This document shows, one piece after another, positions 56,601 to 62,600 of a stretch of DNA of 64,000 nucleotides (positions are counted from its first letter, which is position 1; each line of letters opens with the position of its first letter). Position numbers: made by a program. The stretch lies in NCBI RefSeq assembly GCF_054482595.1, contig NZ_CM137008.1; one strand, given 5' to 3'.

Positions 56601-59600
56601 CGCTGGAATTTGACCCTGCCGATAATGACGATTATGCCATGCAACAGCTTGATAAGCGTGATAGTACGGCTATGGCGGGGGTTGCCTGGTATCACCACGA
56701 GCGTTGGGGAACCGTGAAAGCCTCTGCAGCTGCGGACGTTCTGGATAACAGCAACGGCTGGGTGGGGGAGCTATCGGTATTCCACAAAATGCAGATAGGT
56801 CGTCTGTCGCTGACACCTGCGCTGGGCGTTCTCTATTATGACGAGAATTTCAGTGACTATTACTATGGCATTTCAGAGAGTGAGTCCCGTCGTAGCGGTC
56901 TGGCAAGTTATTCCGCGCAGGATGCCTGGGTGCCCTATGTCAGCCTGACGGCAAAATACCCGATAGGAGAGCACGTCGTATTGATGGCGAGCGCAGGATA
57001 CAGCGAGCTGCCGGAAGAGATTACCGACAGCCCGATGATTGATCGTAATGAGAGTTTTACCTTCGTCACCGGCGTGAGCTGGCGTTTTTAATTCACCGGT
57101 GGATGTCGGTGCGGCTGGCCTACGCTCTCGCACCGACTTGTATGCCTGATAAGACGTGTTAAGCGTCGCATCAGGCAATGTGCTCCTTACGTTGGATGCG
57201 GCGCGAGTGCCTTATCCAACCTACGGATGGCAATGCTTTTCCTCATTCACCCAGATCCGCATTTCGCCTTCACCCCGGTTGGCCCAGCTAAACCACGGGA
57301 TAAAGGTCAGAGTTTGCGTCTGGCGTTTGGCTGGCGCGCTGTCGTAATGCCACAGCGGTTGCTGCTCTGGATTGCTCTGTTCATACCGGTAACCCGGTGC
57401 CTGGATTAAGATCTTATGGCTAAACAATCCATTGCCTTCAAATGTCGTAAATGGCGCATCGGTGGGCAGCCACAGATTATGCAGTGACTCGCCGTTGTCG
57501 GCCTGTTCCAGGCAATACACCAGCGGGCCGCGCTGAATCGCCACTTTTCCGGCGACGTGACGCACCAGCGGGTTACCGTAAACGCGACGTACTGGCATCG
57601 GCAAAGTCAGATTCAGCGTGTCGCCCTCCTGCCATTCGCGGGTAATGTGCAAATACCCTTTACGAATATCCTGCTCGACCTCTTCCCCATTCAATATGAT
57701 CTGCGGCTGTGTGCACCAGTCCGGCAGACGTAAAGCAAGTGTATGACGCACCGGCTGGGGCGATTCGACCGCAATCGTCACCTGTTCCTGCCACGGATAG
57801 TTCCCGCTAACCCGCAGGCGCAGCGTGCCATTTTCTACCGGCACTTCCATGCTGTTTCCTGCGTATATGTTGATATACAACGCATCTTCTCGCGGCGTGT
57901 AGAGATAATGACCAATCGAGGTCAGCACGCGGGCGATATTTGGCGGACAACAAGCGCAGCCAAACCAACGCTGGCGGATCGGTTTAACGTGATCGTAGAT
58001 ATGGTTGAATTTCAGCGATTTTGGATGTACTTCCAGCGGATTCACATAGAAGAAATGTTTGCCATCCAGCGCCATGCCGCCGAGCACGGTGTTGTACAGT
58101 GCGCGCTCCATCACATCGGCATATTGACTGTCGCCTTCCATTTCCAGCATTCGTCGGGCAAACATCATCAGGCCGATGGAGGCGCAACTTTCAGCGTATA
58201 CCGTGTCATTCGGCAGATCGTAATCGCTGCTGAACGCTTCACCGCTGCTCTGTGAGCCAATGCCGCCGGTAATATATAACTGACGCTGGGCCATATTGTT
58301 CCACAGCCGCAGGCAGTTCTGACGCTTGCTGTCATCGTGACTTAAACGCGCGAGATGCGCGACGCCGGTCATCAGATAGACAAAACGTACCGCGTGACCG
58401 ATGGCGGTTTGCTGTTGCGCAAGGGGCAAATGTGCCTGGCTGTAGGCTTTGTCTTTCACCATCCACGCCGGGCCGTAGGTGTGCCAGTGCGATGTCTGCC
58501 CGCGCTTTTCATATTCCTGGTCGTAATAGTGCGGTTGCGCACCACGTTGTTCGACAAAATAGTTCGTCAGTGCCAGGTAGCGCGGCTCTTCGGTCACTTC
58601 ATACAGACGCATCAGTGCCAGTTCAATTTCCGGGTGACCAGGGTAACCGTGTAACTTACTTTCATCTGGACCAAACACGCTGTCGATATGATCGGCCAGA
58701 CGGCAAACCACTTCCAGCAAGCGCCGCTTGCCCGTGGCCTGGAAGAAGGCGACTCCAGCTTCAATCAGATGACCTGCGCAGTAAAGTTCATGACACTCCG
58801 CCAGATTGCTCCAGCGTTCTTCGGGTGCTTTTACCGTAAAGTAAGTATTGAGATAGCCGTCTTCGCATTGGGCGGAGGCGATCAGTTCGATTACCTCGTC
58901 GGCGGTTTTTTCCAGTTCGGCGTCTGGCTTCTGGCACAGCGACCAGGCTACCGCTTCCAGCCATTTGGCGACATCGCTGTCCTGAAACACCATCCCGTAA
59001 AATTCACCCTCCTGAAGTCCGGCGGCAATGCGAAAGTTTTCAATCGCATGGCTGGGTTCCGCTTCTGGTATACGATCGTTCAAGGCATCCCACTGATAAG
59101 GAATCACCACGTCGCGGACCAGTTGTTGGTACTGACCGAGAAACGGATCGCTGACCGTCAGTTTATGCAGATCGACTTCCGAAATGTTCATCTTGTGCTC
59201 CTTAAGGCTGTACATGACGCTGACGCAGGTCGGTAGCAATGCGTGACATCATAGGGTTATTGAGTTTGCAAAAGCGGATCGCCCCTGCCAGCAGCAGGTG
59301 GAATAGCGCAGGCAGTAATGTTTCCATCGCCGTGATCCCGCCAAGCGAACTGGTGGTCTGGTTTTCCACGCCTGGCTGGTAGGCGACAAAAATAAACAGC
59401 AGGCTGATGATCCCGGCGCTGGAGGCCCAGGCCAGCTTGATGAAAAACAGATTGAAGGCGAAGTTCATGCCGGAAGAACGTACGCGGGTTTTCCACTCGC
59501 CGTAGTCATCGGCAAAGGCCATCAATGAGAAGTGCAGTGGCAATGTGAAGCCAAGAATCACGCCATTACCGAGGATCACCGCCAGCCACAGCGTTTGATA

Positions 59601-62600
59601 AGCCGGGCCGGAGGGCAGGAACCACATCAACACCGCCAGTGCAGCGAGGAGCAGGTTGGTGTAGTAATAAATTTTGACGGTATCGAAACGCCGCGTTAAC
59701 GGGCTGACAATCACCGAGCCGATAATGGAGGCGAAGGTGACCATGGTGAAGAACAGCGACGTGTAGCCCGTGCTGCCTTGTAAGACGTAGGTAATGAAGT
59801 ACATATACCCACCGCCGCGAATATTAAAGACGTTAATCAGCAGGAAAGACATGACCAGCATCAGCAGCAGTTGGTCGTTGTTCCGCAGCCCGGCAAGATG
59901 TTCGCGCAGGGTAAATTTCCCCATTGTGGAGAGTGGCACCCGTTCACGAACCCAGAAAAAACAGCACAGGAACATCACCACGGCAATGGCGCACAGCACG
60001 CCGACGCCCAATTGATAGCCGCGCGCGGCATTACCCTGACCGAAGAGATCTACCATCCACGGTAAGCCTACCGAAACCAGAAATCCCGCTACGCCACAGA
60101 GAACGAATCGCCAGGACTGGCAGGAGATCACTTCATTGTGGCGGGTGGTCATGGTGTTGATCAGCGCGCAGTACGGTACGTTGATGGCGGTATAACCGAC
60201 TGAAAGGAGCAGGTAAGTACCGAACGCCCAGGCGATTTTTACTCCCATGCTGGCATCTGGCACGGTGAACGTCAGGATGCCGATAATGCCGATGGGAATG
60301 GCAATCCATAGCTGCCACGGACGAAAGCGCCCCCAGCGACTTTGCGTCCGGTCGGCAATGACGCCCATCACCGGGTCGGAGATGGCATCAAACACGCGCA
60401 GTGCAATAAACAGCGTGCCAACCAGCGCCGGAGTTAATCCAAAAACGTCGGTGTAGAAAAAGGTGAGAAAGTTCATGATCAGGCAAGTTATTACGGTGCC
60501 GCCTGCGTCACCCAGGCCGTAGCCTATTTTTTCCCGTACCGATAACGCATCGTCAATTTTACCTTTAGCGATATCAGCGGTAGTAATCGGTGTAGAGGTC
60601 ATAGATATTCCTCGTGAATAGGGAGCAATTTTTAGTTTTATTGAAATGACCTGATTAATTCTGCCGTGAACGGGAATATCAACAAGGCGAGAAAAGAGTA
60701 AAAAAAGGTGACGATTCCGACCTGAATTTAAAAGTGTGAAATGGATCAGGTGAAATTAATGTTTTTTATTAATAATCAAAAGGTAATGTGTTTTGTCATT
60801 AATGAAGAAGCGGGAAATTACATATCAATGCTCGAATTATCCATGACGTTACCGATTAAAGTGCAAAATGGTGGATTATTTATTTCCCGTGGCGTAGGGA
60901 GGCATCCTGCAAGGCGGCTGGAGTCATGGGAAATTATCTTTGTCGAAAAAGGTCGATTAACGATTCAGGAAGAAGAACGGATATTTCTGGTCGATGCGGG
61001 AGAGAGTTTATTACTCTGGCCGAACCGACAACATGTTGGGGTGGAGGATTTTCCCGCCGATCTCAAATTTTACTGGCTGCATTTTGAGGTTAAAGCGCCG
61101 GACAACGACCCTCGCTGGCTTACTCATCTTAGCGTGCCGCAACAAACGAAGGTTGTCGATCCGCAGGCGCTGGTGGCCCTGTTTCGCCAGTTCTTAAGCG
61201 AACAGGAAAAGCATCAACGCACTCCGGCGCTGGAGTTTATTGTGCTGCTCATTTTGCAGCAGCTCACCCGTGACGCGCGTCTTGATGAACAGGCCGATGG
61301 CGCAGGCACCACCCTTGCCTGGAAAGCGCAGAAACTGATCCGCACGCAATATCATCGCCCGCTTTCTACGGTGCTTCTGGCCCGCGAGCTGTACTGCAAT
61401 GCCGATTATCTTGGGCGCGTCTACCGGCGGGTGTTTCATCTGACGTTAACAGAAGCAATCCATCGCCAGCGGGTGCGCGAAGCCGAAAAGCTGTTAATTA
61501 GCGAAGCGCGATCGCTCACGGAAGTGGCGGCGTTGTGCGGGTTTAATGACGTTGGCTATTTCCGGCAGATTTTTCGCAAACACACCGGTTTAACGCCAGC
61601 AGCGTGGAAGCGGCGTTACAGCAAGGAACATATCAATTCGTAGTGCCGTGTCGATTTCGCTTTCGACATCACGTCTGAAACAGGTGGGGGAGAAAAATCT
61701 CCTGAAACCACTGCGTGAAACCGCGCAGGCTATTTCTAATGAACTGGGATTTACTGTCAGGGATGACCTTGGCGCGATCACATAACGCTTTGGACAAGTG
61801 CCAAAACTTTAACATTTCCTTCGTTGGATCAAAGCAGTAGGGACGTGCTCTCTGGCACTCTGCTGTTTTAGTGCAAAGGAGTGATCATGAACCGGTTTAT
61901 TATTGCGGATGCGACGAAATGTATCGGTTGCCGTACCTGTGAAGTGGCTTGCGCAGTGTCGCATCAGGAGAATCAGGATTGCGCTGCGTTGTCACCAGAC
62001 GAGTTTATTTCCCGTATTCGTGTTATTAAAGACCACAGCTGGACCACGGCAGTAGCCTGTCATCAGTGTGAAGATGCACCGTGCGCGAATGTCTGCCCTG
62101 TTGACGCGATAAGCCGCGAACATGGGCATATTTTCGTTGAACAATCACGTTGCATTGGCTGTAAAAGCTGTATGCTGGCTTGCCCGTTTGGTGCGATGGA
62201 GGTCGTTTCTTCGCGCAAAAAGGCGAGGGCGATTAAGTGCGATCTGTGCTGGCATCGGGCGACGGGACCGGCCTGTGTTGAAGCCTGCCCGACAAAGGCG
62301 TTGCAGTGCATGGATGTCGAGAAAGTGCAGCGGCATCGGCTACGGCAGCAGCCTGTTTGAAACGTTTTTCCGGCGTTTCTCAACGCCGGAATAGCGTATT
62401 AATGGCTTTCAGCCCAGGCGCGTTCAATCTCTTCCGCCAGAATCTTCACACCCGCCTCAATTTTCTCCGGCTCCGGCACGTAGTTCATGCGCATACATTG
62501 ATGTGTATGTGGCCACGGTTTATCCAGTCCTGGGAAGAAGTTGTGCCCCGGCACCATCAGCACGCCGCGTGCTTTCAGGCGCTGATAGAGCTGCTCGGTC

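Follow-up and report, generated by a model that had tools for sequence, protein, structure and literature searches.

Between yiaT and ysaA, the window analysed here (a 64,000-nucleotide stretch of contig NZ_CM137008.1, NCBI RefSeq assembly GCF_054482595.1) carries an AraC-type regulator, a symporter of the GPH family and a GH127 hydrolase, a three-gene module which we consider likely to serve the catabolism of small beta-L-arabinofuranosides. The apparent cassette swap between Escherichia coli K-12 and the window at this position almost certainly reflects two deletions, independent of each other, that removed neighbouring blocks, and what K-12 keeps of the module is its pseudogenes ysaC and ysaD.

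Gene models were taken from the list of open reading frames (ORFs) together with the RefSeq annotation (Prokaryotic Genome Annotation Pipeline, PGAP) of E. coli XH990, which is 100% identical to window positions 57092-61880. The order of genes in the window is yiaT, GH127, GPH, AraC-type regulator, yiaJ remnant, ysaA and avtA, and all three module ORFs are intact:

56351-57091, plus strand: yiaT (ORF list and XH990 annotation)
57221-59191, minus strand: GH127 family protein, 656 residues (ORF list and XH990 RefSeq annotation)
59202-60602, minus strand: MFS (major facilitator superfamily)/GPH transporter, 466 residues (ORF list and XH990 RefSeq annotation)
60828-61643, plus strand: AraC/XylS-family regulator, 271 residues (PGAP start and conservation across genera)
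61645-61785, plus strand: 3' pseudogene remnant of yiaJ (plaR), an IclR-family repressor, 141 nt (PGAP; 'missing N-terminus' in XH990)
59198-59203, minus strand: ribosome-binding site AAGGAG of the GH127 gene, overlapping the transporter stop codon (sequence reading)

A sequence-only reading of this DNA had described a divergent AraC regulator with a co-directional transporter and hydrolase spaced by 10 nt, and both the ORFs and the XH990 annotation bear this out. The transporter stop codon TAA (59204-59202) is separated from the hydrolase ATG (59191) by exactly 10 nt, GGAGCACAAG; this gap, together with the AAGGAG lying over the transporter stop, indicates that the two genes form one operon. 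Their order, GPH and then GH127, is maintained in 75 of 80 related loci, these being the close homologues obtained in a cross-species scan with one genome per species.

Hydrolase, transporter and regulator of the module

Three GH127 domains are recognised by Pfam in the hydrolase (PF07944 at residues 12-427, 1e-112; PF20736 at 438-532; PF20737 at 534-649), matching the family's order of a catalytic (alpha/alpha)6 domain and then the middle and C-terminal beta-sandwich domains. The protein matches Ara127N of Geobacillus stearothermophilus (PDB 4QJY) with 782 bits and about 55% identity over residues 11-650, and HypBA1 of Bifidobacterium longum (3WKW) with 509 bits and 43% identity in an end-to-end alignment. 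In HypBA1, C417 is the nucleophile and E322 the acid/base, and Zn2+ is held by three cysteines and one glutamate (PMC8106489). The E-x-C and C-x-C-C-P-P-N residues that the sequence-only reading had assigned to the GH127 centre are present (E334-S-C336 and C412-A-C414-C415-P-P-N), and the alignment it had proposed as a check on the catalytic cysteines and glutamates places them on the catalytic and zinc residues of HypBA1: E318, E334, C336, C414 and C415 correspond to E322, E338, C340, C417 and C418, and C412, C414 and C415 to C415, C417 and C418. By this alignment we predict C414 as the nucleophile, E318 as the acid/base, and E334, C336, C414 and C415 as the Zn2+ ligands.

HypBA1 binds its sugar through H142, Y145, H194 and R273 and has a loop that covers the active site (residues 35-49; PMC10850190). 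These four residues of the -1 subsite align with H134, Y137, H186 and R269 of the hydrolase and are all conserved. Among the 80 related loci, an intact ORF with the C-x-C-C motif was found in every one, and all five other residue patterns were matched in 77. The N-terminus of the hydrolase has no signal-like hydrophobic stretch, so the enzyme is predicted to be cytoplasmic. Homology, combined with the conservation of all catalytic, zinc-binding and sugar-binding residues of HypBA1, makes a beta-L-arabinofuranoside the well-supported predicted substrate (beta-L-arabinofuranosidase, EC 3.2.1.185). The sequence-only reading had called a substrate of this type plausible, and its case is strengthened by the two full-length matches of 782 and 509 bits and by the conserved sugar-binding residues. 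Almost all characterised enzymes of GH127/146 are beta-L-arabinofuranosidases (PMC10850190).

The closest solved relative is Ara127N (4QJY/4QK0), an intracellular enzyme that agrees with the hydrolase in three-domain length, in the short form of the active-site loop and in its catalytic and zinc residues; its activity is taken here as given by the PDB molecule name and by citations in reviews. The Ara127N gene lies in a large arabinan-utilisation cluster with ATP-binding cassette (ABC) importers and alpha-arabinofuranosidases, whereas the only partners of the hydrolase described here are a GPH symporter and an AraC-type regulator. HypBA1 (Bll1HypBA1, BLLJ_0211) belongs to the same family and has in common with the hydrolase the mechanism residues (C417/E322), the Cys3-Glu zinc site and the sugar-binding set H142/Y145/H194/R273, but it is only 43% identical and its loop A is 12 residues longer.

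The transporter passes the TIGR00792 model (GPH:cation symporter, TC 2.A.2) with 331.7 bits against a cutoff of 231.35, over profile positions 1-437 of 437. Hydropathy analysis showed hydrophobic segments throughout, the profile of a polytopic membrane protein, and MelB structures match it over the full length at 131 bits. Scores for all named models fall below their cutoffs (YagG-like, 353.9 against 610; YicJ-like, PRK11462, 323 against 836; MelB, 206 against 456; UidB, 191 against 528), indicating that the transporter represents a distinct GPH subfamily. The MelB-type Na+ site comprises D55, N58, D59 and T121, with D124. In alignment with MelB (4M64), D55, D59 and T121 are matched by the same residues in the transporter, N58 by S and D124 by N; these two differences may bear on the choice of coupling ion (H+ or Na+). 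We predict that the transporter imports the glycoside substrate. A GPH symporter beside a cytoplasmic hydrolase for an imported glycoside is also the arrangement of yicJ-yicI (alpha-xylosidase), yagG-yagH, uidB-uidA and melB-melA, and the best NCBIfam matches of the transporter are the YagG-like and YicJ-like models, both under cutoff. The partner enzymes of these known E. coli pairs belong to GH31, GH43, GH2 or GH4; the present partner differs from them in being a cysteine glycosidase.

The regulator combines an AraC-type cupin ligand-binding domain (PF02311, residues 26-132, 1e-9) with a helix-turn-helix domain (PF12833, HTH_18, residues 184-263, 4e-19). Its score against the AraC equivalog model NF007860 is 59 bits, under the cutoff of 208, and it is thus a distinct member of the AraC family. 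It is predicted to be a substrate-responsive activator of the GPH-GH127 operon. The longest ORF would begin at 60741; this start was dropped in favour of 60828, since the 29 extra codons are unconserved and overlap a conserved non-coding motif. When 66 orthologous intergenic regions of other genera are aligned, the MLELS-encoding sequence at 60828 is conserved and the 87 nt upstream of it (60741-60827) are poorly conserved, with indels. This comparison makes 60828 the most likely start, giving a regulator of 271 residues and an intergenic region of 225 nt. The following features lie in it:

60603-60827, no strand: divergent regulatory region between the GPH and regulator genes, 225 nt
60647-60665, 60680-60687, 60696-60723 and 60769-60779: blocks conserved across genera (intergenic alignment)
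60735-60748, no strand: CRP-like site TGTGA-AATGGA-TCAgg, with a conserved TGTGA....GATC pattern in the intergenic alignment

The conserved blocks are, we infer, candidate regulator-binding or promoter elements; inspection by eye gave no convincing direct repeat of AraC-type half-sites in them. Set against the CRP consensus, the CRP-like site has a left half that is perfect and conserved and a right half that is weak, and it overlaps the ATG at 60741 of the long ORF call; we regard it as a candidate CRP site only.

Proposed pathway and competing readings

These parts fit a catabolic scheme. The AraC-type regulator would sense the glycoside or its product through the cupin ligand-binding domain and would activate the divergent two-gene GPH-GH127 operon, on which the CRP-like site suggests catabolite control. 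The GPH cation symporter would import a disaccharide-sized glycoside, the best candidate being arabinofuranosyl (Araf)-beta1,2-Ara or a related beta-L-Araf-capped fragment, released by other organisms from plant extensins, arabinans or arabinogalactan-proteins. In the cytoplasm the GH127 enzyme would cleave this glycoside with C414 as the zinc-bound nucleophile and E318 as the acid/base, and the freed L-arabinose would enter the AraBAD pathway. There is a precedent in B. longum, in which secreted enzymes free Araf-beta1,2-Araf from extensin-type glycoproteins, and an importer then delivers this disaccharide (beta-Ara2) to the intracellular HypBA1, which splits it (PMC7263609). Both systems would thus take up a small beta-L-Araf glycoside and split it in the cytoplasm; B. 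longum differs in having secreted GH121 and GH43 enzymes and a beta-Ara2-specific ABC importer, none of which is present at the E. coli locus, where a GPH symporter stands instead.

Several points weigh against this scheme. A scan for sigma-70 consensus promoters was not above chance (two promoter-like sites, with 4.3 expected), and the promoter and CRP assignments rest on conservation. We know of no secreted E. coli enzyme that releases such glycosides, and with no releasing enzyme at the locus E. coli would need other microbes, or the turnover of plant material, to supply them. The known beta-Ara2 system imports its substrate by an ABC importer and not by a GPH symporter (PMC7263609). For the E. 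coli genes, our keyword searches of the literature yielded neither enzyme assays nor growth tests nor expression data, and no paper naming ECs4457-4459 (the O157:H7 Sakai counterparts); searches on the enterobacterial genes (ECs4457-4459, DUF1680, GH127, ysaC/ysaD) likewise returned no study of their function, enzymology, genetics or expression. The loop that covers the active site of HypBA1 is shortened by those 12 residues in the hydrolase as in the Geobacillus enzyme, so the preference for aglycone or linkage may differ from beta-1,2-arabinobiose. Finally, GH127 includes an enzyme that is not an arabinofuranosidase, the aceric-acid hydrolase BT1003 (PMC10850190), so family membership alone does not settle the substrate.

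The last two points feed a reading in which the module is functional but its hydrolase acts on another glycoside (an aceric-acid-type branched sugar, an anhydro-galactoside or another furanoside) and the transporter imports that compound, which we judge unlikely, though it keeps some weight. At least one characterised GH127 enzyme, BT1003, provides the example, and the only NCBIfam match of the hydrolase is in fact the BT1003-like aceric acid hydrolase model (NF049879). That match, however, scores 458.1 bits, less than half of the cutoff of 950, and the BT1003 structure (5MQO) matches the hydrolase in three stretches with 323 bits, whereas the two beta-L-arabinofuranosidases score 782 and 509 bits. 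All four -1 subsite residues of HypBA1 are conserved despite the different loop, and the rarity of other activities among characterised GH127/146 enzymes also argues against an alternative substrate.

A catabolic module for small beta-L-arabinofuranosides, our preferred reading, would be an uncharacterised member of a known enzyme family within a familiar transporter-plus-hydrolase design. RefSeq already annotates its genes as GH127, MFS and AraC, the K-12 remnants are already named pseudogenes, and the functional prediction appears unsurprising, following as it does from ordinary homology. What it offers is a candidate carbon source for a large share of E. coli, among them O157:H7, and for many Enterobacteriaceae, namely the beta-linked L-arabinofuranosides of plant cell-wall glycoproteins and pectins, to which cross-feeding, in the gut or on plants, would probably give access. 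Two published observations touch this subject. Among E. coli isolates from inflammatory bowel disease (IBD), a GH127 gene co-segregates with epithelial invasion, a statistical association with the invasiveness of adherent-invasive E. coli in which the activity was inferred from HypBA1 (PMC11879602); this was the one relevant result of our searches for functional work. In work on L-arabinose use by O157:H7 on plants, E. coli is said to be unable to access L-Araf directly, and the module genes are unmentioned (PMC8489885).

A more specific and more tentative proposal, which we hold to be possible but somewhat doubtful, is that the carriers of the module, about 43% of E. coli (including O157:H7) and many other Enterobacteriaceae, use it for cross-feeding: bifidobacteria, Bacteroides, xanthomonads or the plant would break down extensins, arabinans and arabinogalactan-proteins, and the carriers would live on the beta-L-arabinofuranosyl disaccharides set free. 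If this were true, the transporter would be the first member of the GPH family that imports beta-arabino-oligosaccharides, and E. coli would have a route to plant-bound L-arabinose, a modest revision of the view in PMC8489885. It could also explain the co-segregation of GH127 with invasive IBD isolates (PMC11879602), and the presence or absence of yia-sgb would be an old polymorphism, the same junction occurring at 92% identity in cryptic Escherichia.

Distribution and conservation

We counted the states of the locus in 5,426 complete E. coli genomes, scoring the module as present when at least 80% of it was found. The module is carried by 2,311 of them, always on the chromosome; the exact junction of the window occurs in 426, O157:H7 among them, which leaves about 1,885 (2,311 minus 426) in which the module and the yia-sgb block lie side by side. 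A K-12-type remnant was found in 2,461 genomes, and about 650 have neither the module nor such a remnant. The sequence-only reading had called for a survey of this locus across E. coli genomes, and the outcome is divided: the module is real and widespread, but replacement is contradicted by the roughly 1,885 genomes with both blocks. In O157:H7 Sakai, ECs4457-ECs4459 are the same genes in the same arrangement, truncated yiaJ included, with no structural difference, and the hydrolase is annotated there as 'hypothetical protein'.

The region has at least four gene-content states in E. coli. The fourth is seen in E. coli FHI_NMBU_03 (L005, 1529-13141), where aldB directly adjoins sgbE and yiaW, yiaV, yiaU, yiaT and the GH127 module are all missing; this strain has an extra DUF4862 gene between yiaL and yiaM and a Fic-family gene upstream of aldB. 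The remaining 650 or so genomes may be of the FHI_NMBU_03 type or of other unclassified types.

Beyond E. coli, the divergent order of regulator, GPH and GH127 genes is kept, with their orientation, in about 70 of the 80 related loci and in more than 20 genera. Syntenic loci include those of Citrobacter, Klebsiella, Raoultella, Enterobacter, Leclercia, Lelliottia, Kluyvera, Kosakonia, Phytobacter, Pantoea, Buttiauxella and Salmonella enterica subsp. diarizonae, and the module is usually flanked by yiaT-yiaU on one side and by sgbE or ysaA-avtA on the other. The ratio of nonsynonymous to synonymous substitution rates (dN/dS) for the three genes lies at 0.04-0.09 in comparisons within E. coli and at 0.03-0.12 across genera (by gene: hydrolase, 0.05-0.08; transporter, 0.03-0.07; regulator, 0.06-0.12), and judged by these values the module is under strong purifying selection. 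That it is instead a relic decaying in E. coli towards the K-12 state, with no contribution to fitness in the window strain, would fit its loss in more than half of E. coli genomes and the multiplicity of gene-content states; we nevertheless find this very improbable, since the window has three intact ORFs, dN/dS is low both within E. coli and across genera, the regulatory blocks are conserved and, by contrast, the hydrolase-gene remnant of K-12 is only 89% identical.

The module does not look like a genomic island. Its GC content is 0.53-0.56 over the two minus-strand genes and falls to 0.40-0.49 only in the divergent promoter region and over the beginning of the regulator gene, in agreement with the earlier remark that the cluster is not AT-rich. 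In the ORF list and the XH990 annotation, no mobility gene, tRNA or insertion sequence (IS) element lies at the module borders, and no mobile-element scar was seen at the borders of the full arrangement described below. Because the same locus is occupied in many related genera, the module is not an island that was swapped in but a vertically inherited chromosomal resident of this locus in many enterobacterial genera.

Two groups of distant close homologues stand apart from this pattern. In Bradyrhizobium species (L077-L082 and L086), a GH127 protein 71-72% identical to the E. coli enzyme is encoded without the symporter or the AraC regulator, and in one of them (L081) its gene adjoins those of an S9-family peptidase and a PAS histidine kinase; identity this high between classes suggests that the hydrolase gene has moved horizontally. 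Enterobacteriaceae bacterium MGYG-HGUT-00110 has a paralogous second module of about 70% identity (L085, 5219-9956) with a LacI-family regulator, a GPH symporter and a GH127 enzyme, located between hisJ/argT and purF, and the AraC-linked copy (L032) is found in the same genome. Neither the Bradyrhizobium neighbourhoods nor that of the LacI-linked enterobacterial copy gave a clear clue to the substrate.

Adjacent blocks at the locus and their deletions

The reference for the history of the locus is E. coli 1919D62, which has the full arrangement yiaT, GH127, transporter, AraC regulator, sgbE, sgbU, sgbH, lyxK, yiaO, yiaN, yiaM, yiaL, yiaK, yiaJ and ysaA. By blastn, window positions 56001-61655 correspond to the left part of this arrangement and 61645-62394 to the right part, the two matches overlapping by a few bases. 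The right part, comprising the yiaJ remnant and ysaA, is 99% identical to the full arrangement from the 3' end of yiaJ onwards. The two parts meet at the following feature:

61645-61648, no strand: deletion junction with 4-nt GCCG microhomology (side-by-side comparison with 1919D62)

At the junction, ...TCGTAGTGCCG/TGTCGATTTCG..., the left side consists of the regulator stop codon and the first bases beyond it, the sequence to the right comes from within yiaJ, and GCCG is present in both parents. Compared with the full arrangement, 8,986 bp are gone from the window, which removes sgbE, sgbU, sgbH, lyxK, yiaO, yiaN, yiaM, yiaL, yiaK and most of yiaJ; what remains of yiaJ is the last 46 codons, translated as AVSISLSTSRLKQVGEKNLLKPLRETAQAISNELGFTVRDDLGAIT up to the stop codon. 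The comparison with 1919D62 and the yiaJ remnant at the junction indicate that the window carries an 8,986-bp deletion and not a replacement.

K-12 MG1655 presents the reciprocal case. Its sgbE-yiaT interval contains two pseudogenes, ysaC (b4648) and ysaD (b4649), both fragments of the module: ysaD corresponds to an inner part of the hydrolase gene (window 57329-57518, 89% identity), and ysaC to the 3' end of the regulator gene (61540-61655, 95%). Window positions 57119-57328 and 57519-61539 have no counterpart in K-12, so that most of the module sequence is lost there, whereas the neighbouring yiaJ-sgbE block is intact. The sequence-only reading was thus right that K-12 has the yia-sgb block between yiaT and ysaA, but it overlooked ysaD and ysaC, pieces of the module in the same interval. 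We are in very little doubt that the two neighbouring blocks were lost independently, yia-sgb in the window strain (as in O157:H7) and the module in K-12.

The claim that the cluster replaces the yiaJ-sgbE block is therefore refuted by the full arrangement, the yiaJ remnant with its 8,986-bp deletion, ysaC and ysaD of K-12, and the locus in other genera. The general form of that claim, a strain-specific alternative cassette or island that displaced yiaJ-sgbE by gene replacement or horizontal transfer, draws on the mutually exclusive yiaT-ysaA contents of the window and K-12 when these alone are compared and on the fact that about 57% of complete E. coli genomes lack intact module genes, but it is scarcely credible given how common side-by-side blocks are (about 1,885 of 5,426, where an assembly artefact is implausible given thousands of complete genomes), the yiaJ remnant with its clean microhomology junction, the hydrolase and regulator gene fragments kept by K-12, the module at the same locus in many genera, the normal GC content, and borders free of mobility genes, tRNA and IS elements.

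The deletion in the window is not a recent event. Escherichia sp. E1V33, of a cryptic lineage, has the same junction, TAGTGCCG/TGTCGATTTCG (L007, 5293-5633, against window 61560-61900, about 92% identity). A junction held in common across about 8% nucleotide divergence indicates that the deletion did not arise lately in the window strain; on this estimate, the sgbE-to-yiaJ deletion allele is old, or is a long-lived polymorphism that crosses species boundaries. In 1919D62 itself, yiaJ is annotated as incomplete at the C-terminus and yiaY as frameshifted (L002, 26832-27665 and 7302-8452), and regulators and enzymes around the yia locus seem prone to decay.

One further feature lies between the convergent yiaT and GH127 genes:

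57143-57221, no strand: palindromic element of the repetitive extragenic palindromic (REP)/bacterial interspersed mosaic element (BIME) type (Rfam near-match and visible palindromes)

It scores 58.7 bits against naRNA4 (RF02564, REP325-type), just below the gathering score of 59.5, and this near-match was the sole result of an Rfam scan, which gave no riboswitch or leader. The scan that looked for promoters also covered terminators and yielded twelve terminator-like sites against 5.7 expected, none of them convincingly placed, and it was left unused. The end of the REP/BIME element overlaps the GH127 stop codon, and it is probably a transcript-end or stabiliser element; K-12, in which window 57119-57328 is missing, does not have it at this site. 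A related 40-nt copy was detected by blastn near aldB in other strains.

The neighbourhood of aldB varies as well. In O157:H7 Sakai, a 1.3-kb gene for a 'hypothetical protein', ECs4465 (L087, 28078-29373), lies between yiaY and aldB; its length and place make it a possible counterpart of the Fic-family gene of FHI_NMBU_03, which lies upstream of aldB. The window has no ECs4465-like gene in the equivalent interval (50203-51570), where the aldB ORF comes immediately after the end of yiaY at 51543.

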